Source: a virus (Duplodnaviria > Heunggongvirae > Uroviricota > Caudoviricetes). Taken from it: a stretch of DNA of 9,678 bases. Positions 1 through 9,678 of the stretch are shown here, in pieces; the first letter of the stretch is position 1, and each line of letters starts with the position of its first letter. Under the pieces are notes generated by a model that was given only the letters and a program-made list of their open reading frames with translations, did not search any database and was not told the origin of the DNA. Both the position numbers and the translations under genes were made by a program. The DNA lies in IMG/VR virus record IMGVR_UViG_2534682162_000003, positions 1 through 9,678 of that record. One strand, written 5' to 3'.

Positions 1-333
1 GCGAAAATCTGCACTCCGGGCGCGGATGGTGACAACATCCGGCGCGCCCCGGTGTTCAACCTCATCAACGGTAAATTTCCCTTTGCATACCAGGGCAAAA
101 CCTTTCCAGCCGATATACACCGTCAGGACAGCGCCACGAACCGGCAGCCCGACCTGCCCGTCGGCATCGTTCAGTTCAATATCAAGCTGGTCAGCCTCAA
201 AGCCCCGGTTATCCGTCAGGGTCATGCTCATCAGACGGTCGCTGATATTGCCGGTAATATCCCTGCTGTCGAGCATCAGCATGTAATCCGGCGTCAGCGT
301 ACTGCCTGCATCAAATGTCAGCGTATCCAGCAT
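1..333 (-). CDS. D: Tail/baseplate protein D (phage late control gene D family), N-terminal 111 codons only; gene continues past the window start
   Basis: Minus-strand frame is open from the ATG at 333..331 to position 1 (hand-translated: MLDTLTFDAGSTLTPDYMLMLDSRDITGNISDRLMSMTLTDNRGFEADQLDIELNDADGQVGLPVRGAVLTVYIGWKGF...). Its start overlaps the U stop as TAATG (331..335). Position after U matches the P2 order T-U-D. Family assignment is from memory of gpD-like N-termini, not a search. Confidence 0.75.
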   Translation of the reverse strand, partial: MLDTLTFDAGSTLTPDYMLMLDSRDITGNISDRLMSMTLTDNRGFEADQLDIELNDADGQVGLPVRGAVLTVYIGWKGFALVCKGKFTVDEVEHRGAPDVVTIRARSADFR

Positions 334-812
334 TATCCCGCCCCCGTCATACCCGTGAATTTAGTTGCCATACTGCCCGCCTTACCGATGAGCGATTCCG
401 CCTGTTTACCGATATCGCCATAAAGCGCGGCCAGTGATTCATCAACGCGGGTAAGTGACAGCGTAAAATCAATTTTCCGGGGTGTGCCGTCTGCAAAGAA
501 AATACTCCCTGTTTCACTCACCCTGCTGATGACATACATGCCGTAAATCATGCCTGTGCCATCCAGCAACGGCCACGCCCGGCCTTCCTCAGCCATCAGC
601 CTGAGCGTGGTCATCGTCAGCTTGCCGCCGGTCAGTTCGGGATAAAGCACACCGGCAAGCGTGATATTTTCCTCGCCAACACCGAGAAACTGGTAGGCAT
701 CCCGTTTACCGATACGGGAATTTGACGGCCAGCGATAATCTGATTCACGCTGCATGGTCTGGTGTGGCAGCGTCTGGCGCATAAAAACAAACATACCTAA
801 CGCGAGCATCAT
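333..812 (-). CDS. U: Tail protein U (P2 gpU-like)
   Basis: 159-aa ORF, the length I recall for P2 gpU. AGGAGG Shine-Dalgarno at 819..824 (minus strand), overlapping the end of T. Sits between T and D as in P2. Confidence 0.85.
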   Translation of the reverse strand: MMLALGMFVFMRQTLPHQTMQRESDYRWPSNSRIGKRDAYQFLGVGEENITLAGVLYPELTGGKLTMTTLRLMAEEGRAWPLLDGTGMIYGMYVISRVSETGSIFFADGTPRKIDFTLSLTRVDESLAALYGDIGKQAESLIGKAGSMATKFTGMTGAG

Positions 813-826
813 TTTTCGTCACCTCC

Positions 827-3274
827 TTAACCGTCATGCATCATGCTGGCACGGGCGCGCGCACGTTTATCCCGCTCGTATTTTTCGAGCGCATCCTGTA
901 ACTGGCGGTCGAGCTGAGTCCCCGGCGCAGTACCGCCCGTCAGACTGATGTGATATTCGTTTTTACTCTGGTCCACATAAGAGCGGCCAGCCGGTGCCGT
1001 AACCGGCTGATAAGCCTGATAGCCTGCATAAGAGCTGGTCGCCGGAATATAACCACCGGTGCCATACGTGGCGGCATGAGTTCTGGCGGCGGTCTGGTCA
1101 AGCGTGCCTGACTCTTTGTTGATAACACCGAGTTTTTCCAGTACCCAGTCAATACCGCTGCGCAGTTTGTTGAACGCATTAAGCGGCAGCATCAACGCGT
1201 CAGCCAGTGCCTGCCCGAACATGACGCCAGTATCACGGCAACGGTTCAGGGTGTCCTGGGTGGCTTTGACCGGGGCAATCAGGTTTTTAAACCACTGCCA
1301 CGCGGCCTGTAACTTTTCGCCCAGCCAGTCAAACACCGGCTTAAGTGGCGTGAACAGTTCCCCCACCGGCGCAAATGCCGCTTTCAGCCCTTCCATCACA
1401 CCGCCAAAGAATGCGCTGACAGGCTCCCAGTATTTACGGATAAGCAACGCCCCGGCGACAATGGCGGCCACCACGGCCACAACCGGCCAGCTAATCGCCC
1501 CGATGGCAGTCATAACAGCACTGCCAACCGTCGTGAAGATTGCCCCCATTGCGCCTGCTGCCACGATGATGGCATTGATGCCGGTGATAACCGGCCAGGC
1601 TACAAGACCAATGGCACCGATGATGCCAGTAAGCGCCAGCGCGCCACCGGCAATTAGGCCAATGGTTGACGCCAGTGATTTGTTTTTCTGGATCCAGCCG
1701 TCGAGTTTTAACACATACTTTGTGGCCGTCTGCGTGAGCTTACGCAGTGCGCCTTCCTGCTGGTCAAACAGGTCAGTCCCCACCGCTTCATAAGCGGACT
1801 GAAACTCCTTAAAGTCACCGCCGAGGTTGTCCTGCATGATTTTAACCAGCTCTTCCGTTTTACCGTCTGAGGCTTTCAGTGTGGCGGTCAGCTTATCCAG
1901 TTTTCCGCTTGCAGCCGCTGCCAGTAAAACGTTCGCTGATTTCAGGGCTTCCTCACCAAAAATGGTTTTAAGGTATTCCCCCTTCTGAGACGTTCCCAGC
2001 TTGTGTTTATCAAAGCTGGCCTGAATCTCTTTCAGAATGGTGAACAACGGACGCATATTTCCCTTTTTGTCCGAGGTTTTAACGCCAAGCTCTTTGAGTG
2101 CATCCCATGCTTTTCCAGTCGGTGCCTGTAATCGGGTGACAACGGCACTGCCACCCGTACCCGCCATTGACCCCCTGATGTTATTGTCATGCAGCACACC
2201 TGTCATGGCCGCTGCCTGTTCAAGACTTACACCTGCCGTCCTCGCAACCGGACCGAGGTAAGTCAGTGCATCACTGAGTCCCTGAAAATCAGCCGCCGAC
2301 TTATTCATCGTTGCCGACAACACGTCGCCCACATGGCTGACATCATCATTTGACAGTTGAAAGGATGCCTTAGTCCCCAGCAACAGTTGCGCGTTTTCTT
2401 CCATCGACCGCTGATTCGCCAGTGCCATATTCAGCGTGACCGGCGTTGCCGCCTGAATAGCCGCAGCATCTCCACCCGCTTTCGCAATGATAATCTGCGC
2501 ACCGGCCGCATCATCCGCTGAGGCGGCGGTATTGTCGCCGAGCTGGCGCGCCTGTTTGCGGAGCGCGGCCATTTCGGCGGAATCTTTTGCCACACCGAGC
2601 ACGGCCTGCAATTCTGAGTTTTTCTGCGCAAACTCATAACCGGGCATCAGCAGCTTAACTCCGGCCATCGTTCCCGCCGCCGCAATCCCCACACCGGCAG
2701 CGCCCACTGAGGCCATATTTCCGGCAAGTTCTTTTCCTGCCTGATAACGCTGTTTGACTGCGTTAAGTTTTGCCTGTTGTGCACTGACACGCGCCAGCGC
2801 GTCACGCTGCCGGTTAAGCTGTGCGGTGGTTTCACTGATACGGTTTTTCAGCCCCTGCTCATCATGTGCAAGATTGCGGGTATTAATTCCCACAGCGGCC
2901 AGTTCCCGCTGCTGGCGTTTAACGGAATCCGTCAGGCGGTTATATTTCGCCTGTAAGTCCTCCGCCGCACGCTTTGCGGATTCCAGCACTTTCGCCTGAG
3001 CACGGGTCGGACGTTCAGTGTTTTTAAACTGTGTGGCAAGTGCTTCGGCCTCCTGCCGTGCCTTTTCAAGTGCATGACCAGTCACGGCAAGCTGTGCACT
3101 GGTCTTGCGAAATCCCTCAATACGGGATGCGTGACCATTCAGCTCGCGCAGTGATTTTTGTGTTTCCCGGATATCCCCCGACAGCGACTTACTCGCTGTG
3201 CGGATGGATTTAAACGGGCGGGATGCCTGGTCAACAGCCCTGAGCAATACCTGTAATTTTACATTGTTACTCAT
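827..3274 (-). CDS. T: Tail tape measure protein (P2 gpT-like)
   Basis: 815-aa ORF. N-terminal region is charged and Ala/Gln/Arg-rich (coiled-coil character), followed by long Gly/Ala-rich hydrophobic segments (e.g. LTGIIGAIGLVAWPVITGINAIIVAAGAMGAIF...), typical of tape measure proteins. Located directly downstream of the E/E' chaperone pair. Confidence 0.9.
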   Translation of the reverse strand: MSNNVKLQVLLRAVDQASRPFKSIRTASKSLSGDIRETQKSLRELNGHASRIEGFRKTSAQLAVTGHALEKARQEAEALATQFKNTERPTRAQAKVLESAKRAAEDLQAKYNRLTDSVKRQQRELAAVGINTRNLAHDEQGLKNRISETTAQLNRQRDALARVSAQQAKLNAVKQRYQAGKELAGNMASVGAAGVGIAAAGTMAGVKLLMPGYEFAQKNSELQAVLGVAKDSAEMAALRKQARQLGDNTAASADDAAGAQIIIAKAGGDAAAIQAATPVTLNMALANQRSMEENAQLLLGTKASFQLSNDDVSHVGDVLSATMNKSAADFQGLSDALTYLGPVARTAGVSLEQAAAMTGVLHDNNIRGSMAGTGGSAVVTRLQAPTGKAWDALKELGVKTSDKKGNMRPLFTILKEIQASFDKHKLGTSQKGEYLKTIFGEEALKSANVLLAAAASGKLDKLTATLKASDGKTEELVKIMQDNLGGDFKEFQSAYEAVGTDLFDQQEGALRKLTQTATKYVLKLDGWIQKNKSLASTIGLIAGGALALTGIIGAIGLVAWPVITGINAIIVAAGAMGAIFTTVGSAVMTAIGAISWPVVAVVAAIVAGALLIRKYWEPVSAFFGGVMEGLKAAFAPVGELFTPLKPVFDWLGEKLQAAWQWFKNLIAPVKATQDTLNRCRDTGVMFGQALADALMLPLNAFNKLRSGIDWVLEKLGVINKESGTLDQTAARTHAATYGTGGYIPATSSYAGYQAYQPVTAPAGRSYVDQSKNEYHISLTGGTAPGTQLDRQLQDALEKYERDKRARARASMMHDG

Positions 3275-3694
3275 TCGTGTTTCCGCTTCGCTGGAGCGCC
3301 TTTTCGCGCCATGTGATGAGTTCGGTCAGGCTCATGGGATACAGTTCTGATGGCGGCCAGTGAAATATCACTGCCACATCCGCCATCAGGTCATCTACCG
3401 ACAGATTTTTCGGAAACGTCACTGCACCGAGTTCGGCGACAAAAAACCGACCACCTTACCGGCCAGTTCCACAAGGTCAGGCAGTTCCATCGCGGCGACT
3501 TCCTGCTCGGTCAGCATCGGTGCCGTCATGCGCGGCAGCACCTTAATAAGTGCATCGACTTCGGAGTGTGCGACCGAAGCCAGACTGACACCGCGAAGCG
3601 TCCCGGCATTAGGTTTCATCAGCGTGACCTGTTTGATAACCTGCTCACCACGTTTGACCGGATTTTCCAGGGTAATCACATTTTCTTTGTTCAT
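3267..3694 (-). CDS. E': Tail assembly chaperone E+E' fusion made by programmed -1 ribosomal frameshift
   Basis: Hand-translated: after a -1 slip on T TTT TTG, the frame stays open for 58 codons (VAELGAVTFPKNLSVDDLMADVAVIFHWPPSELYPMSLTELITWREKALQRSGNTNE) and ends at TAA 3269..3267, overlapping the T start codon (3274..3272). This is the P2 arrangement, analogous to lambda G/GT. Confidence 0.65.
3419..3694 (-). CDS. E: Tail assembly chaperone E (P2 gpE-like)
   Basis: 91-aa ORF between FII and T. Contains the T TTT TTG slippery heptamer near its 3' end. Confidence 0.85.
   Translation of the reverse strand: MNKENVITLENPVKRGEQVIKQVTLMKPNAGTLRGVSLASVAHSEVDALIKVLPRMTAPMLTEQEVAAMELPDLVELAGKVVGFLSPNSVQ
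3440..3446 (-). promoter_or_regulatory. -1 frameshift slippery heptamer T TTT TTG (minus strand)
   Basis: Plus strand 3440..3448 reads caaaaaacc, so the minus strand reads ggttttttg. In the E reading frame this gives GGT TTT TTG, the canonical X XXY YYZ layout. Confidence 0.65.
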
Positions 3695-3750
3695 GGTTTT
3701 CTCACTTCTGAATCAGGGTTAACCGGTCAGCCAGGCTGACCGGATGAAAA

Positions 3751-4269
3751 TCACAGGCCGATATTGCGGCGGTGTTGCTCCAGCCGGTCGACGCCGTTCA
3801 CCTTCTCAATCATGTTGATGGTGTCGATTTCGACCAGCTCCTTACCGTCCATCGTCAGCCGGAAATAGGTGCAGACCACGGAGATTTTCGACTCGGTGTC
3901 TTCTCCCTGTTTGCCCTCGCCGGTGTCGATTTCTTTCTGACGTCCACGCATGACCACCTCGACGGCCACCGTTTCGCCGGTATCGTCACGCTGGTAAGAG
4001 CCTGCAAAACGAATCGGTACGGCATCCACACCGGTTGCGGCGTAAAGCTCCCAGATAACCGAATCCGGGAAGCCCCCGAGCGACCACTCCATTGACAGCG
4101 CATCGTCATCAAGGCCGAGGTCTACCGGTGCGCTGCCGTTCATCCCCGCACCGCGATAGTTTTCGAGCTTACGGGTCAGTTTTGGTAGCGTGACGGACTT
4201 CGCGACGCCCTGATAGCTGTAGCCGTTCAGAAAGACGTTCATTAACTTGAGTTTGCGCGGCATTGCCAT
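3751..4269 (-). CDS. FII: Tail tube protein (P2 gpFII-like)
   Basis: 172-aa ORF immediately downstream of the sheath gene. AGGAG Shine-Dalgarno at 4273..4277 (minus strand), overlapping the FI stop. Confidence 0.9.
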   Translation of the reverse strand: MAMPRKLKLMNVFLNGYSYQGVAKSVTLPKLTRKLENYRGAGMNGSAPVDLGLDDDALSMEWSLGGFPDSVIWELYAATGVDAVPIRFAGSYQRDDTGETVAVEVVMRGRQKEIDTGEGKQGEDTESKISVVCTYFRLTMDGKELVEIDTINMIEKVNGVDRLEQHRRNIGL

Positions 4270-4281
4270 CGGTCAGGCTCC

Positions 4282-5472
4282 TTAATTGCTGTTAACCGAG
4301 GTGACCAGATTTGCCAGGTATTTATCGGTAATACGCTGGCGCAGGGTCAGGTTTTCAAGAGGAGGCACCGGTGTATAGTCGTAGTCGATATACAGTTTTC
4401 CGGCCTTGAGGGTTTCCGCATCGTTGGATTCTTCGCTGAACCAGCAGGTCGCATCCACGATATAGCCGTTTGTTTTCAGCTCACGGAATTTGGCATTGAT
4501 GCCGTCAACGATGTCGCGAATCAGCGTTGCGGTGATGGGCTTGTCCACCGCCCACATGTGCGCCTCAGCCATCGTGTCGGCCAGCACCTGCGCGGTGCGG
4601 GTGTAGTTTTCAAAGAGGAACAGCGGGTCATCAGAGCAGGTACGGTTACCCCAGAAGCGGAAACCGTCGCGGCGAATCAGCGTAGTGACGCCTGACTCGT
4701 TAAGCAGGTCAGCATCGGTGCCGGACTCCTGCAAGTCCCAGAATACAGATGCGCTGATGCCGGTAACACCGTTCACCCCGACATTGGACAGCGTTTTATG
4801 CCAGCCCTGCTCCTGGTCGATTTTGGCACGCAGCCCCAGTGCACGGGCGGTTGCATACGCGGTGGCGGTGGTACTGGTGACCGTATCCCATGCGAGGAAA
4901 TCCGGCCAGATGACCATCAGCTCACGCTGGCTGAAATTCTGGCGGTAAGCTTTCACCTCGGAAATGGTTTTACAGCCCCATGCGCTGATATACCCGAAAG
5001 CGCGCAACTTCTGACAGACTGATGCCAGTGCAACAGCCACCTCTTTGGTATCCAGCCCCGGCACACCGAGAATACGCGGTTTAACACCGGTTACCGACTC
5101 CGCCGCCAGCAGGGCTTTCAGTCCGGTGTACTGGCCGTTTTCGTCGGTGGTGCCGATGATATTGGAAACGGTCTGCGCGAGTTTCGTTTCTTCGTCGTCG
5201 CCGGTTCCGTCTTCCACGCGCACGACAACGGTGACCGGTTTTGACTGGTCAGCGATGGCCTGCAACGATGCCGCCAGCGTGCCTTTTTTACCGGCCTTTG
5301 CAATGGCGCTCTGCACATTGGTAATCAGCACAGGTTTATTGAGGGGGAAGGTTTCCGCATCCGCATCGCTGGCCGTGCAGACCATGCCGACAATGGCAGT
5401 GGATACGGTGGAAATGACGCGGGTGCCGTCGTTAATCTCCAGCACCTGCACGCCGTGATGATAGTCACTCAT
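4282..5472 (-). CDS. FI: Contractile tail sheath protein (P2 gpFI-like)
   Basis: 396-aa ORF, first gene of the FI-FII-E-T-U-D block. GGAG Shine-Dalgarno at 5480..5483 (minus strand). Confidence 0.9.
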   Translation of the reverse strand: MSDYHHGVQVLEINDGTRVISTVSTAIVGMVCTASDADAETFPLNKPVLITNVQSAIAKAGKKGTLAASLQAIADQSKPVTVVVRVEDGTGDDEETKLAQTVSNIIGTTDENGQYTGLKALLAAESVTGVKPRILGVPGLDTKEVAVALASVCQKLRAFGYISAWGCKTISEVKAYRQNFSQRELMVIWPDFLAWDTVTSTTATAYATARALGLRAKIDQEQGWHKTLSNVGVNGVTGISASVFWDLQESGTDADLLNESGVTTLIRRDGFRFWGNRTCSDDPLFLFENYTRTAQVLADTMAEAHMWAVDKPITATLIRDIVDGINAKFRELKTNGYIVDATCWFSEESNDAETLKAGKLYIDYDYTPVPPLENLTLRQRITDKYLANLVTSVNSN

Positions 5473-5561
5473 CCGTTTAACTCCGTGGTTAATGGGTGCA
5501 ACTATTTTCTGTTGTGCAGTGCATGAGACGCTATTTGACCTGACTGGTCAGTGGATGAAAC
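5473..5561 (-). promoter_or_regulatory. Probable late promoter region for the FI-FII-E-T-U-D operon (P_F equivalent)
   Basis: About 90 bp lies between the minus-strand terminator and the FI start, and by synteny with P2 this is where the activator-dependent late promoter should be. I found no clean TGT-N12-ACA dyad by eye; only a short CTGAC-tg-GTCAG dyad at 5540..5551. Confidence 0.3.
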
Positions 5562-5596
5562 AACAGATAAAGAAAAGGCGGGCAATTCGCCCGCCT
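5562..5596 (-). terminator. Rho-independent terminator on the minus strand
   Basis: 8-bp GC-rich stem (5576..5583 aggcgggc pairing with 5589..5596 gcccgcct) with a 5-nt loop. On the minus strand it is followed by TTTCTTTATCTG (5575..5564). Confidence 0.55.
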
Positions 5597-5625
5597 GTCC
5601 TGATTTGTACTCACTCATTTTCCGC

Positions 5626-5660
5626 CTGACAATTTACATAGCCCAAATGCTATCAAATCT
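5626..5660 (+). promoter_or_regulatory. Candidate sigma70-type promoter for the cargo gene
   Basis: -35-like cTGACA at 5626..5631 and an extended -10-like TGcTATCAA at 5648..5656, with a 19-bp spacer (longer than optimal). Identified by eye only. Confidence 0.25.
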
Positions 5661-5692
5661 GACAGTCTGCTTTGAGCGAAAAGCAGACTGTC
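5661..5692. repeat. Perfect 13-bp inverted repeat with 6-nt spacer (GACAGTCTGCTTT gagcga AAAGCAGACTGTC)
   Basis: Read directly from the sequence: 5661..5673 is the exact reverse complement of 5680..5692. Lies about 115 bp upstream of the cargo start and just downstream of the candidate promoter. Confidence 0.6.
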
Positions 5693-5808
5693 ACGCGTTG
5701 AAGTTAATTGTATTACTTAGATAAACACTATCATTTTCCTGACGTTAAGTTGTATCTTTGATAGGATTAAAAAACGTATAGATAGCTTATGCTACTGAGG
5801 GAATAAAA

Positions 5809-6618
5809 ATGACGAAAATTAGTGAACGATGGAAGCACAATGGCATTACTGAAGGTTATTGCAATATTTGTGGGAAATATGGCTTGCTCACAAAAGATCA
5901 TGTTCCTCCAAAGTGCGCCATAACCTTAGGCCCTGTTTTGCAGAAAACAGTTAGCGAATTTTTTGGTATTCAGGAACCAGTTAAACCATTAAATGCTAAA
6001 AATGGCTCTTATTTCAGAACCATTTGCAGCCACTGTAACAATAAGGTATTAGGTGGGCTCGATGTTGCAATTGAAAATGTAACAAAGTCCTTTAAAGAAC
6101 AGTTAAGTCGATATATGAATGGTATGAATGTATATCCATTCATTAGAATACCTTTTGATAGCATATCTTTCACTAAGGCTATGATTGGGCACGTGCTATC
6201 AGCAACTTCAGTTGAAGATTGTAAAAAAGAACCCGTAGATAGCCCCTTCTATACACCTTTAAAGGATTATGTTTTGGGTAAAAATTCAAGTTTTGAGGAA
6301 ACTCATGATATTTACTACTGGTTTTACCCACACAGAATGCACATATCCGCTCAAAGTGTAGCATTTATGAACGAAGGACATGTGGCATTTATTTGTGCTT
6401 TACATTTTTTCCCTATCGGTTTTATTATCACAATGAAAAATGAAGGAACATACCCTGCCCACTCTACAAAATTAGAACTTGAAGATAAATTCCTTACATT
6501 TAATATGACCTCTATAAATTATGAGTATACGACATTTCCATTTGTAAATCTTAAGGGAAACCAAATGTATGCGATAAGCAACGGTCATACTTGTGTGAGT
6601 TATCCAATAATTAAGTGA
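5809..6618 (+). CDS. Hypothetical protein with N-terminal HNH-like zinc-finger nuclease motif; candidate anti-phage defence/exclusion cargo
   Basis: 269-aa ORF with a GAGGGA Shine-Dalgarno 6 nt upstream of the ATG. The translation contains C18-x2-C21, D30-H31-V-P-P and C74-S-H-C77-N-N-K80, matching the CxxC...DHxxP...CxxCNxxK pattern of HNH/His-Me finger nucleases. The remaining ~190 aa are aromatic-rich with no motif I recognise. Confidence 0.75.
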   Translation: MTKISERWKHNGITEGYCNICGKYGLLTKDHVPPKCAITLGPVLQKTVSEFFGIQEPVKPLNAKNGSYFRTICSHCNNKVLGGLDVAIENVTKSFKEQLSRYMNGMNVYPFIRIPFDSISFTKAMIGHVLSATSVEDCKKEPVDSPFYTPLKDYVLGKNSSFEETHDIYYWFYPHRMHISAQSVAFMNEGHVAFICALHFFPIGFIITMKNEGTYPAHSTKLELEDKFLTFNMTSINYEYTTFPFVNLKGNQMYAISNGHTCVSYPIIK

Positions 6619-6672
6619 CGGCTAAATCATACAATCTACGCATGTTCACTTTCTACATATACCATCTATAAT

Positions 6673-6722
6673 GTCCGCTGTTGGCACAGAGCGGACTGTC
6701 AGATCAGGCTTTACTCTGTGCC
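6673..6722. repeat. Overlapping inverted repeats between the cargo stop and the G stop
   Basis: GTCCGCT (6673..6679) pairs with AGCGGAC (6690..6696); GGCACAGAG (6683..6691) pairs with CTCTGTGCC (6714..6722). Neither is followed by a clean U-tract on either strand. Confidence 0.4.
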
Positions 6723-6757
6723 ATAGATATGTAAGCTCACACCAGAGCTCATACAAC

Positions 6758-7285
6758 TTATTGCGGCATTTCCGGCCATTCGGGATTTGCAGGATCCACA
6801 CGACTGACCAGAACGCTGTAGCGTTCCCATCTTTCCAGTCTGCTACGCTCCTCCTCTGTTGCCATATTCAGCCTGACAGCGCGCTCCAGCGGCAAAATCA
6901 CGGATTCAGCATCTGCAAGAAGTCTGGCTTTCCTGTTTTCTGCCTGCTGTTGCAATTCCTCTGCCGTATAAATTCGTTTGATCACTGTGCCATCCTTAAA
7001 CATCCAGTTCCCTGAAATATCCGCCCGTCGGTTAGCAGTAATATCCGCCACTTCAACAACACTTAATCCATCCGGTCTGATAGCTGTCACATCCTTTTCC
7101 ACATAGCGGATGATATTATCTTTGTCGTACGCTATTTTTATCGTGTCATCAGCAAAATACTTTTGTTCTTCGTACCAGTTCTTACCATCTTCTGAAAAAA
7201 ACCAGACAACATCAAAGTCCTTTGTCAATTGATATTGTTCAACCGTTTTTGGATTACCCGCCGTAATATTTTTTAAATGCTGCAT
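6758..7285 (-). CDS. G: Tail fiber assembly chaperone (P2 gpG-like)
   Basis: 175-aa ORF starting 3 nt after the H stop. C-terminal half is GC-rich and conserved-looking; N-terminal half is AT-rich. Confidence 0.85.
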
Positions 7286-7288
7286 AAA

Positions 7289-9367
7289 TTATACCTGCGC
7301 CACGTTATACCATGTCCCGTTAATGTATTTCTGCACCGGTCTGTAATATACGCCACCAATGTTATCGGCAGAGTTTGAGCCGGTATCCTGAACAATAATG
7401 CCGGTATATACACACCCGGACGGTGCCTGATGTGTCCATGTCATGCCATTGTTCGCAGGTTTGTATGTGGCGGCACCACCAAGCCGGATATCCCGGACAT
7501 AGCGGGAGTCAAAATTGCTGAAATTTGATGGTATCACCTGCCCGGTAACCCGTAGTGCATCAGACTTAAGCGTCATCAGGTCTTTTGTTGTGCTGCCAGA
7601 CCTGATGCGCCATTTAAAATATTCATTGCCATTATCACCAGTTTCAAACCACATGTATGAGTCAGAATCAGCATCTGAATCATTTTTAAATCCAATTTTC
7701 GCCCAGTCAGTGTTTCTTTCCCAAATCAGGAAGGCATCATTGATAAATTTTATGCTGCCTGACATGCTTCCGCCTGATAATGCCAGAGCAAGAATATCCG
7801 CAGGTGTTGGCTTTCGTGATGTGGTATAAAACTCTGACCAGTCAGCCTCAAATCCATACCCATCACGTGCCGACCTGTAAAAAATCCCCCTGTTTTTATA
7901 ATCCACAAGAAACTGCATTGCCGGACAACTTCCCTCACCCGTGTAAAAATGCAGCACCATTTTTGATGCTCCGCCATCCTGTGCACAATAAGCACCACTG
8001 TCCCAGTTCCATCCTACCGCTTTATTATTTGCAACCGTATTTCCTGTTTTCCCTAATGCAAAAGCCGGTTGCTTATTTTTCGTATTGTAGTCGCGTCGCC
8101 AGCCCGGCGCATAATCAGCTCCGTGATTGATATACGTGAATTGCGCACTGGTGGTACCACCACCGCTTGATGTACTCGGAGTGGTCACACGAATGGTCAT
8201 TGCAGCTTTAACGCCCATAACCTCAATCACGCAACCTGCAAGATGAATAGTCCCACAGTCAGTATCGGTAATAATTTTGTTATTACCGTATGACCAGGAA
8301 CACTTGCACATCCAGTAGGGATGATTAAAGGCTCCCTGAGACTCTAGCCAGTCAATAAACTGAGCGGTTGTCCAGTTTCCGGCGTCAGTGCTCAAAGCAC
8401 CGCTATAAGCACGACAGGCACCGATATTTTTCGTGAAAGTATCCTTTCCCGGAATATCCGCACCGTTCTGATCTTTCTGAAGACGTTTTTCAGCATTGTC
8501 ATAGGCAGACTTCACCGCTTTTGGTGTTGCCGCAAGCGTTTCAGAATCGCTGTTGGTGGCGCTACTGAGCTGGACAAGACCTTTTCGCGCTGTGGTGGCA
8601 TCCTGTGCAGTGTATTTCCCGTTAGCAAGGTCATACGCTGTCTTAACCGCCTTTGGCGTTGCCGCAAGCGTTTCAGAATCGCTGTTGGTGACGCTACTTA
8701 GCTGGACAAGGCCTTTTCGCGCGGTGGTGGCGTCCTGTGCGGTATATTTCCCGTTAGCAAGGTCATACGCGGCCTTTACCGCTTTCGGCGTTGCGGCCAG
8801 TGTTTCAGACGTGCTGTTGGTCGCACTGCTTAACTGAGTAAAACCTTTTGCGGTCAGCGAGGCGTCCGGGTGACGTCGTGACTGTTCGTGCTCTGCAATT
8901 TTGTCATCAACGTAATCCTGCGTCGCCATCACCGTTGTGGTGTCAATGGTCAGCTCCACTGAGGCCACACTGCTGACGATGATGACCATACGGCAGGTCT
9001 GCGAACGCCCTGAGCCTTCGGCAAGGGCAGGCTTATAACTTTCGGCCATGTTCGCCACGGCAATTAACGTTCCCGCATCATCGTACAGGCCAAGCTCACG
9101 CATCCAGAAACCGCCCACCTCCGGCGGAATAACCAGCTCTGCGATAATATAATTACTGTTTCGTTTGTCCTGGCTGATTTTGTTCAGCGCATGTCGCCAG
9201 ACTTCGTGGATAAGCCCGGTCTGTCCGGCATCCGGGACAGGCAATTTACCACCGCCATCCCCGACGGCCATCGTGGTAATGTTGACCTTCCGCCCTCCCG
9301 GCGCGGTTGCCGCTGCCAGCTTTGCTGCACCGGCAGTGGTGATAACGGTTCTGAATTTTGTGCTCAT
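7289..9367 (-). CDS. H: Tail fiber protein (P2 gpH-like)
   Basis: 692-aa ORF. The N-terminus (MSTKFRTVITTAGAAKLAAATAPGG...) resembles what I recall of P2 gpH. Contains three tandem 44-aa repeats. The C-terminal ~350 aa are lower in GC and Cys/Trp/Tyr-rich, consistent with a receptor-binding domain. Confidence 0.9.
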   Translation of the reverse strand: MSTKFRTVITTAGAAKLAAATAPGGRKVNITTMAVGDGGGKLPVPDAGQTGLIHEVWRHALNKISQDKRNSNYIIAELVIPPEVGGFWMRELGLYDDAGTLIAVANMAESYKPALAEGSGRSQTCRMVIIVSSVASVELTIDTTTVMATQDYVDDKIAEHEQSRRHPDASLTAKGFTQLSSATNSTSETLAATPKAVKAAYDLANGKYTAQDATTARKGLVQLSSVTNSDSETLAATPKAVKTAYDLANGKYTAQDATTARKGLVQLSSATNSDSETLAATPKAVKSAYDNAEKRLQKDQNGADIPGKDTFTKNIGACRAYSGALSTDAGNWTTAQFIDWLESQGAFNHPYWMCKCSWSYGNNKIITDTDCGTIHLAGCVIEVMGVKAAMTIRVTTPSTSSGGGTTSAQFTYINHGADYAPGWRRDYNTKNKQPAFALGKTGNTVANNKAVGWNWDSGAYCAQDGGASKMVLHFYTGEGSCPAMQFLVDYKNRGIFYRSARDGYGFEADWSEFYTTSRKPTPADILALALSGGSMSGSIKFINDAFLIWERNTDWAKIGFKNDSDADSDSYMWFETGDNGNEYFKWRIRSGSTTKDLMTLKSDALRVTGQVIPSNFSNFDSRYVRDIRLGGAATYKPANNGMTWTHQAPSGCVYTGIIVQDTGSNSADNIGGVYYRPVQKYINGTWYNVAQV
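8490..8880. repeat. Tandem 132-bp repeats (three copies plus a partial) inside H
   Basis: Repeat units begin at about 8526, 8658 and 8790 (period 132 bp), with a degenerate partial copy near 8490. They encode the 44-aa repeat LSSxTNSxSETLAATPKAVKxAYDLANGKYTAQDATTARKG. Confidence 0.85.
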
Positions 9368-9377
9368 TATTCCTCAC

Positions 9378-9678
9378 TTATCCGGGGTAAACCGTAATTA
9401 CATCGCCGTCGTAAGCCACACCACCGGCGAACAGGTAGCCGGGAATGTCCCGGGTAATGTTCAGGCCAATAAGGTGGCGACTTGCAGGTTTGGCATCAGC
9501 AATCAGCCGTTCCATTTCCTGATACATTGCCTCTGTGATGCCGCTTTCCAGTACACCAATATCAAGCCTGAAGGTGCCTGGCGGGTCACTGTTTTCCCAC
9601 CACTCCGTCACGTTGATGAGATAGCCGAGCGGCTCCACCACACGCCGGATTGCGCCGATAGTGCCTTTATGACAGTGG
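9378..9678 (-). CDS. I: Baseplate assembly protein (P2 gpI-like), C-terminal part; gene continues past the window end
   Basis: Minus-strand frame is open from the window end (9678) to the stop at 9378..9380. The stop is followed by a GAGGA Shine-Dalgarno and the H start. Position upstream of H matches the P2 order I-H-G. Confidence 0.7.
   Translation of the reverse strand, partial: HCHKGTIGAIRRVVEPLGYLINVTEWWENSDPPGTFRLDIGVLESGITEAMYQEMERLIADAKPASRHLIGLNITRDIPGYLFAGGVAYDGDVITVYPG

Follow-up and report, generated by a model that had tools for sequence, protein, structure and literature searches.

Morons, as described by Juhala, Hendrix and colleagues, are autonomous gene units that lie between the late genes of temperate phages and carry their own promoter and terminator. 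The late promoter pF of P2 is activated by Ogr or Delta and is characterized by a partial dyad, TGT-N12-ACA, centred near -55. For the convergent promoters pR and pL of coliphage 186, transcriptional interference has been measured ('sitting duck' model). Here, a stretch of 9,678 nucleotides (nt) from a virus of the Caudoviricetes was analyzed (IMG/VR record IMGVR_UViG_2534682162_000003, positions 1 to 9,678; hereafter the window), with a focus on an intrinsic terminator at 5576..5596 on the minus strand and on the cargo gene that separates it from the tail-fibre assembly gene G. The window covers late morphogenetic genes of a prophage of the P2-like (Peduovirus) type. Its genes are read on the minus strand in the order end of I, H, G, cargo (on the plus strand), FI, FII, E, T and U. 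What separates G from FI is P2's fun(Z) moron site, which is recognised as defence hotspot #2 in P2-like phages (PMC9519451; bioRxiv 10.1101/2024.10.15.618418). The name 'TO region' does not apply to it and denotes the tin/old locus, which lies between A and Q. Taking the explanation as a whole, we consider it fairly probable that the stem-loop at 5576-5596 and its U-tract form a conserved intrinsic terminator that closes the V-W-J-I-H-G late unit directly before the promoter pF. The hotspot would have opened between the G stop codon and this terminator, which ancestrally would have stood 6 nt past the stop. Every cargo, in either orientation, would then be located within the late operon's 3' untranslated tail, and the conserved terminator would serve as a common backstop keeping late-strand transcription off the pF activator site.

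The terminator between G and pF

An intrinsic terminator consists of a G+C-rich stem of about 5-12 bp, a short loop and a U-rich tract directly 3' of it. In the window, the stem-loop AGGCGGGC-GAAUU-GCCCGCCU (5576..5596, minus strand) is followed at 5566..5575 by the U-tract UUUCUUUAUC, with the closing U of the stem before it. In the consensus scan this stem (5596..5576 on the minus strand) was listed with 9 pairs, of which 7 are G-C, and with a 3-nt loop and the tail TTTTCTTTATC. As scored, the stem measures 8-9 bp and the loop 3-5 nt, which is within the range of intrinsic terminators. It was the strongest of six scan hits in the window and the sole intergenic one, the others being located within the genes FII, T, H and E. 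Terminator-like sites are no more numerous in the window than chance would give (6 vs 10.6 +/- 3.4 expected from shuffles). RNA folding of the hairpin gave -20.1 kcal/mol (z = -4.5), and none of 200 shuffles was equally stable. The signal is directional: the minus strand has the U-tract UUUUCUUUAU, and no U-tract but GTCCTGATTTG (GUCCUGAUUUG) comes after the stem on the plus strand. Along the late strand from 6757 to 5597, no canonical terminator was found between G and this stem. The sequence-only reading of the locus had singled out 5576-5596, with its minus-strand U-tract, as the only textbook terminator; as the only strong intergenic one it is confirmed by its scan rank and its fold. In the literature on P2-like phages, no transcriptome and no transcript data for this terminator were found.

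The terminator is kept in relatives. In the cargo-less Yersinia phage P37, the order is G-TAA-ACACAA-GGCGGGC-TTATT-GTCCGCT-TTTTCTTTATC, followed by pF and FI (133 nt). Eganvirus SI22, which is 186-like, equally cargo-less and has an 88% identical FI, shows the stop codon, 6 nt, then AGGTGGGT-TTATT-ACCCGCCT-TTTCTTTTTCC, and again pF and FI (134 nt). In the SI22 terminator stem one C-G pair is exchanged for U-A. The hotspot itself was sampled with 70 IMG/VR loci whose G protein is at least 95% identical and which hold 39 cargo types. The distance from G to FI is 1077-4202 nt in these 70 loci. This terminator is present in 39 of the 39 cargo types, where its end is 91-107 nt upstream of the FI ATG, and all 39 are located between G and this conserved terminator, which was also found in P37, SI22 and P2. 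Within its U-tract, the alignment shows no variation in the columns TTTTCT. Since the compact form is common to two genera, insertion is more parsimonious than repeated precise deletion, and the compact layout is probably ancestral. It is well supported by sequence comparison that cargo was inserted between G and its original terminator. The sequence-only reading had suggested this for the one cargo in the window, and the compact order of P37 and SI22 together with the 39 cargo types supports it.

Several observations weigh against the assignment. No canonical terminator was found upstream of FI in Klebsiella phi7.1, Burkholderia FLC10, Erwinia EtG and Salmonella RE-2010, and because these four phages have none, the terminator is not indispensable. 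P2's copy of the pF-proximal hairpin is weakened by a mismatch (-10.1 vs -19.5 kcal/mol for the window in the same scan). Moreover, in the P2 record the putative terminator of the V operon is annotated at a different place, within the cargo region. Covariation in the terminator stem (88.8% of cells paired, one compensatory cell, indistinguishable from shuffles) is too weak to prove selection, and the test is uninformative because the sequences are too alike. Yersinia phage vB_YenM_56.17, in which a non-homologous terminator is located at the analogous place, speaks for the assignment.

Immediately downstream of the U-tract lies the predicted pF region. Its site and start positions were transferred from the GenBank annotation of P2 (AF063097) by counting from the FI ATG. 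The P2 record gives an activator site 69-97 nt and a transcription start 24-26 nt upstream of this ATG, which places the activator site at about 5541-5569 and the start at about 5497 in the window. A dyad of the Ogr type, TGT(5562-5560)-N12-CCA(5547-5545), was read by eye at 5545..5562 on the minus strand. It has the same form as P2's annotated site, its position agrees with the P2 annotation, and it is predicted to be the pF activator site. The terminator U-tract (5566-5575) ends 4 nt from this predicted dyad; judged from position and sequence, the two would form a classic terminator-promoter junction between two late operons. The pF region occurs in two quite different sequence versions (window 5497-5565 compared with 5050-5130 of locus L003), both of which contain TGT-N12-CCA. 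The window type (ATCTGTTGTTTCATCCACTGACCAG...) is present in most loci, and the P2 type (ACCGGTGGTTGTGCTGTCGATTAGCCAACCGG...) in P2, L082 and P37.

The gene calls, with G, H and FI on the minus strand and the cargo on the plus strand, proved right in the open reading frame (ORF) list and by Pfam. G (6758..7285, minus strand; Pfam Caudo_TAP, E = 9e-34) is the last gene of the V-W-J-I-H-G late operon and has the position of P2 gpG. H occupies 7289-9367 on the minus strand. FI, the tail sheath gene (4282..5472, minus strand), is the F operon's first gene. The cargo gene of 269 amino acids (5809..6618, plus strand) is convergent with G. A megablast search against phage records returned P2-like phages with conserved flanks at about 5300-5688 and about 6680-6900, and between these flanks the DNA is unrelated in most phages. 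A plus-strand ORF of 45 amino acids at 5492-5629 overlaps pF and the terminator. Its equivalent in phage pro147 is annotated as a hypothetical protein (ORF8), and the ORF is very likely spurious.

The cargo cassette and its boundary hairpins

The cargo is foreign by base composition, with a G+C fraction of 0.32-0.375 over 5700-6699 (33-37% for the cargo gene) vs 0.50-0.60 in FI and the end of G. Its protein corresponds to phrog_21495, to which no function is assigned in PHROGs. No hit was obtained in Pfam, NCBIfam or PADLOC, and no homology to a known defence protein was found. The family comprises 93 detected homologues in Enterobacterales, Vibrio and Pseudomonas, which carry the source labels 'chaperonin', 'metal-binding protein' or 'hypothetical'. 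The family is invariant at C21, D30-H31-V32-P33-P34, C73, C76-N77 and H128, and nearly so at C18. The AlphaFold2 model is confident (predicted local distance difference test 90.8, predicted template modelling score 0.90), and the Protein Data Bank returned no structural neighbours for it. By eye, the pattern CxxC...DHVPP...CxxCN is reminiscent of an HNH nuclease; the tools gave no support and this identity is not claimed. A Serratia homologue (84%) is located at another P2 hotspot, after gpD, and an Enterobacter homologue (56%) adjoins a terminase gene. Judged from these sequence contexts, the distribution of the family is moron-like.

A plus-strand scan found no sigma-70-like site in 5694-5808 and no plus-strand terminator in the window, and weak or unusual signals may escape such a scan. 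Promoter-like sites in the window are not above chance (11 vs 9.2 expected). Two facing promoter-like sites lie inside the G-side end of the cassette. The plus-strand site at 6645-6672 (TTCACT-16-TATAAT, 10/12) points toward G in antisense, and the minus-strand site at 6655-6626 points into the cargo in antisense.

Hairpins are located directly past the G stop, at 6673-6723 (-21 kcal/mol, z = -2.75). Stem A is formed by pairing of 6714-6723 with 6682-6691 (10 bp) and stem B by pairing of 6690-6696 with 6673-6679. These hairpins had been described as lacking U-tracts, and inspection of the tails on both strands agrees: neither the late-strand tails ACAGCGGA and AUUAUAGA nor the plus-strand tail UGUCAGAU contains a U-tract, and the terminator scan did not list the hairpins. 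The 3' arm of stem A (6682-6691) overlaps hpL (6673..6696), the hairpin of stem B, with the pattern GTCCGC-N12-GCGGAC and the late-strand sequence GTCCGCTCTGTGCCAACAGCGGAC. A related hairpin, hpR (5660..5693), is located at the FI-side end of the cassette. Its core at 5665-5688 reads GTCTGC-N12-GCAGAC and is extended in the window to a perfect 14-bp stem, which folds with -23 kcal/mol (z = -5.0). The sequence-only reading had overlooked this hairpin, as well as a weak one inside the cargo (described below).

Outside the two hairpins the flanks are conserved. According to the flank alignment, the G-proximal block (6697..6757, minus strand) contains a small hairpin (6745-6750/6733-6738) and the 5' arm of stem A (6714-6723). 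It has 91% mean column identity over 31 distinct flanks and is absent from P37 and SI22. The FI-proximal block (5597..5659, minus strand; 51 distinct flanks compared) fills the space between hpR and the terminator. It begins with TGTCAGAT, which is complementary to ATCTGACA at 6697-6704, so that the two form an inverted repeat. When the flanks of all cargo types were aligned, the late strand read G stop, 61 nt, ATCTGACA, hpL as GTCCGC-TCTGTGCCANNA-GCGGAC and cargo, followed by hpR as GTCCGC-TYYTCGCTCAAA-GCAGAC, TGTCAGAT, about 60 nt and the terminator. Thus hpL and hpR have a common stem (GTCYGC-N12-GCRGAC) and distinct conserved loops (TCTGTGCCANNA vs TYYTCGCTCAAA). Flank conservation of all 39 cargo types ends exactly at hpL and hpR. 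In the cargo-bearing loci, 96.5% of the cells are paired in stem A and 89.9% in hpL. No significant covariation was detected in either, the sequences being too similar to support or refute a structure. Two IMG/VR pattern scans revealed no 'empty' site with both conserved blocks or with one complete hairpin, and the only cargo-less type encountered was the fully compact one of P37 and SI22.

The cargo ends often continue the palindrome, as in the L013 type (GCGGACATATC...GATATGTCCGC). Frequently they read AAC/GTCCGC and GCGGAC/GTT, and GCCTAAT is found upstream of hpL. Four long cargos (L006, L029, L047 and L062) have internal hairpin copies between modules. Throughout about 0.94 Mb of fetched, mostly P2-like loci, the motif occurred only in cargo or cassette regions, bar one coding coincidence in FI. 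Rfam gave nothing above chance in the window between 5300 and 7000, and one tRNA only in 10 hairpin-bearing loci. Several known elements were considered as the identity of the hairpin, namely a sigma-54 promoter, Xer/dif, the shufflon sfx, the repetitive extragenic palindromic (REP) sequence of E. coli and the enterobacterial repetitive intergenic consensus; none fitted beyond 8-11 nt. Inversion of the cargo between its inverted-repeat ends was rejected for the sample of 70 loci, as no cargo was present in both orientations. On this comparative evidence, the hairpins after G are not failed terminators; together with hpR they are conserved boundary elements of a mobile cargo cassette.

Cargo DNA was detected in 141 of 5426 complete E. 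coli genomes, and 29 of these places are on plasmids. A P2 context was present in 25 of the 141, with 21 carrying a 94% variant of the pro147 type and 4 the FI side only. In the rest (about 115 by subtraction), homology to the window covers exactly 5664-6696, from hairpin to hairpin, and is 99.7-99.8% identical among those listed. In lambdoid and plasmid copies, homology ends at 6696 and 6692 and starts at 5664 and 5665. In E. coli UMNK88 a lambdoid prophage holds the cassette, with hokD on one side and a DUF977 gene on the other; that of plasmid p84_MLI104-1 lies between IS26 and a small integrase gene. The lambdoid copy and those of the plasmid loci L085 and L086 extend from hairpin to hairpin (99.8% identical). 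At L085 (NZ_CP116920.1, about 2900-2965), a cer-like Xer site, GGTACGCGTAA-TGAGGCG-TTATGGTAAAT, is located about 25 nt outside the cassette hairpin, and a gene for a 'site-specific integrase' of 200 amino acids is on the opposite side of the cassette. A second, unrelated cargo, the GTP pyrophosphokinase of the L013 type, was found in a non-P2 context in E. coli T16R, where its homology stops at the outer ends of both hairpins, hpL and hpR.

The exact hpL pattern GTCYGCTNTGTGCCANNAGCGGAC, a 24-nt motif, occurred in at least 120 species genomes, compared with about 0.5 hits in 596 Gb expected by chance (own calculation). The matches listed come from many Enterobacterales and also from Hyphomicrobiales, Xanthobacteraceae and Pseudolabrys metagenome-assembled genomes, Nitrosomonadaceae and Pseudomonas, that is from Alpha-, Beta- and Gammaproteobacteria. 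Since no P2 tail genes were found near the 120 listed matches, the motif is not just a P2 marker. The usual form in genomes is a pair, consisting of an hpR-like hairpin, about 18-21 nt and hpL. Several loci contain repeats 0.7-3.6 kb apart, and copies occur in both orientations relative to the neighbouring genes. In sampled Enterobacterales loci the hairpins flank ordinary accessory genes, for example those for MFS transporters, for LysR and AsnC regulators and for aldo-keto reductases. E. coli has few copies, located at accessory-gene boundaries; in strain MSHS 472 they separate TauE/AraC, NUDIX and DinB-family genes. One copy of this strain combines the same loop with a different but complementary stem, GTCAG(T)...(AG)CTGAC. 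The boundary hairpin is apparently an undescribed, widespread repeat that marks gene-cassette boundaries.

What the hairpins do can be read in two ways. They may be a REP-like structural repeat of mRNA or DNA that does no more than attract recombination, which is the most conservative reading. It is somewhat unlikely, on the distribution described above, that hpL and hpR are recombination sites of an undescribed cassette-exchange system for single accessory or defence genes, one which would shuttle genes among the P2 G-FI hotspot, lambdoid prophages, plasmids and chromosomal islets across Proteobacteria. If such a system exists, the P2 hotspot would be a landing pad in the 3' tail of the late operon, and the orientation of a cassette would set co-transcription vs antisense transcription during lysis.

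Predicted transcription across the cargo

The cargo runs against the direction of the late genes, and on the late strand no canonical terminator is found ahead of it; therefore polymerase leaving G should enter the cargo in antisense during lytic growth. From this layout, antisense read-through over the cargo in lytic growth is plausible. That most late transcripts would reach 5576-5596 is less likely than not. Across the hotspot, cargo orientation is approximately even, with 18 of the 39 types all on the late strand and 21 having at least one opposite ORF. Opposite-strand cargo ORFs mostly have no upstream late-strand terminator (18 of 26), and a protective terminator on the G side is present in P2 fun(Z), L010 and the L083 family. 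The 18 same-strand cargo types must use the conserved terminator, because mostly they have no other.

In E. coli, untranslated antisense RNA is a target of Rho and is suppressed by it. Psu, a protein of satellite P4, inhibits Rho during growth that depends on P2, which implies that P2 late transcripts are acted on by Rho. It is possible, without being probable, that Rho, helped by H-NS on the AT-rich cargo, ends the late RNA within a few hundred nt past the G stop. Only the 3' part of the cargo would then see antisense transcription, and the terminator would be a rarely used backstop. Besides the action of Rho on antisense RNA and the existence of Psu, this is in line with the RNA past the G stop, which is untranslated, AT-rich and contains stretches in which C exceeds G on the late strand (6117-6038, C/G = 2.0; 5877-5758, C/G about 3). 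It is also in line with a weak terminator-like hairpin inside the cargo, UGGUUCU-GAAAUA-AGAGCCA (6003..6022, minus strand; -8.6 kcal/mol), which is followed by a T-run at 5995-6002 (UUUUUAGC). This hairpin was returned by our own scan and is absent from the tool scan; it could truncate antisense transcripts or be a chance occurrence in AT-rich DNA. However, rut sites are not reliably predictable from sequence, and the same-strand cargos without their own terminator suggest that polymerase does cross the hotspot. Transcription might also be kept out of most of the cargo by stem A and hpL (6673-6723); acting as a pause site or non-canonical terminator, or as a REP-like 3'-exonuclease barrier after cleavage, these would fix where the mRNA of G has its 3' end. 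The stability of these hairpins and their presence in all cargo-bearing loci speak for such a role, as does a T-rich tail behind hpL in some loci, where the hairpin scores as a terminator (L071, -17.4 kcal/mol; L062, -16.1 kcal/mol). We consider it unlikely, since a U-tract is lacking on either strand in the window and no significant covariation was found; moreover, the occurrence of both orientations relative to neighbouring genes in many genomes fits a DNA-level or general structural role better.

The sequence-only reading had gone further and proposed that antisense transcription suppresses the cargo in the lytic cycle and allows its expression in the lysogen. As an adaptive switch, this would act by transcriptional interference or antisense pairing. 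The geometry fits, late promoters are off in lysogens, and the region 5694-5808, where the cargo promoter would be expected, is in the path of late-strand polymerase before the terminator. However, there is no orientation bias over the 39 types, and same-strand cargos would instead turn on late. A terminator of their own protects P2 fun(Z), L010 and the L083 family, so that exposure to antisense transcription is not conserved. The same cassette also functions in a lambdoid prophage and in plasmids without P2 context. A switch of this kind is thus very unlikely. The layout is the general architecture of the known fun(Z) hotspot and probably incidental. It looks like a tolerated consequence of the site at which cassettes insert, and any silencing of the cargo is regarded as a side effect and not as a designed switch.

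If late transcription extends to the conserved terminator, any gene in the second P2 defence hotspot would join the untranslated tail of the late operon. The layout of the hotspot matters for predicting when prophage defence genes are expressed, and cloning of hotspot loci 'with native promoter' loses the late-strand context. The larger potential value lies in the boundary hairpins, as the breakpoints of two different cassettes fall exactly on the conserved hairpin pair. A hairpin pair common to unrelated replicons and distant bacteria offers a concrete, testable handle on the swapping mechanism.

Comparison with described systems

The cassette boundaries recall integron attC sites and cassette arrays and also IS200/IS605-type elements, which have sub-terminal hairpins, in that cassettes are bounded by structured sites in direct orientation with array-like repeats 0.7-3.6 kb apart. 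The junction form is hpR, about 18 nt and hpL, and identical cassettes occur in unrelated replicons. An attC site is an imperfect palindrome of at least about 57 nt, R''(RYYYAAC)-L''...L'-R'(GTTRRRY), with an IntI integrase nearby. The window hairpins are in contrast only 24 nt each and have no canonical RYYYAAC/GTTRRRY core sites, and the resemblance is partial. No IntI or Y1 transposase turned up, no systematic search having been made, and the sampled neighbours are ordinary accessory genes, not integrases. With REP/BIME elements and REPINs, the hairpins have in common that they are short, stable, intergenic, without a U-tract, repeated within genomes and often paired. The sequence of hpL however differs from the REP of E. 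coli. REPs are lineage-specific, whereas the 24-mer is common to Alpha-, Beta- and Gammaproteobacteria and to phages, and its copies in E. coli are few and located at accessory-gene boundaries.

The closest precedent for interference is the pR/pL pair of coliphage 186, another phage of the P2 family, since in both cases a strong phage promoter would send polymerase over a weaker convergent promoter. Interference was measured in 186, whereas in the window the geometry alone is given, and polymerase would have about 1 kb to cover, with Rho or hairpins possibly in its way. As in other morons, the cargo has a foreign composition, an intergenic site in the late operon and presumed prophage expression. 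In contrast to the classical form, the scans gave no canonical cargo-strand terminator and no convincing sigma-70 promoter, and the unit is bounded by two related hairpins. Among the closest systems is the fun(Z) locus of P2 (AF063097), with its annotated 'putative rho-independent terminator for V operon'. Here fun(Z) is shielded by a cargo-borne terminator on the G side (15639-15666), and the pF-proximal hairpin of P2 is mismatched and unannotated; the window has no such G-side terminator. The gene order, the hotspot and its conserved flanks are the same, the cargo is likewise opposite to the late genes, and pF follows immediately downstream. In summary, with regard to terminators the locus is an ordinary case of moron architecture in a known hotspot and refines known moron biology modestly.

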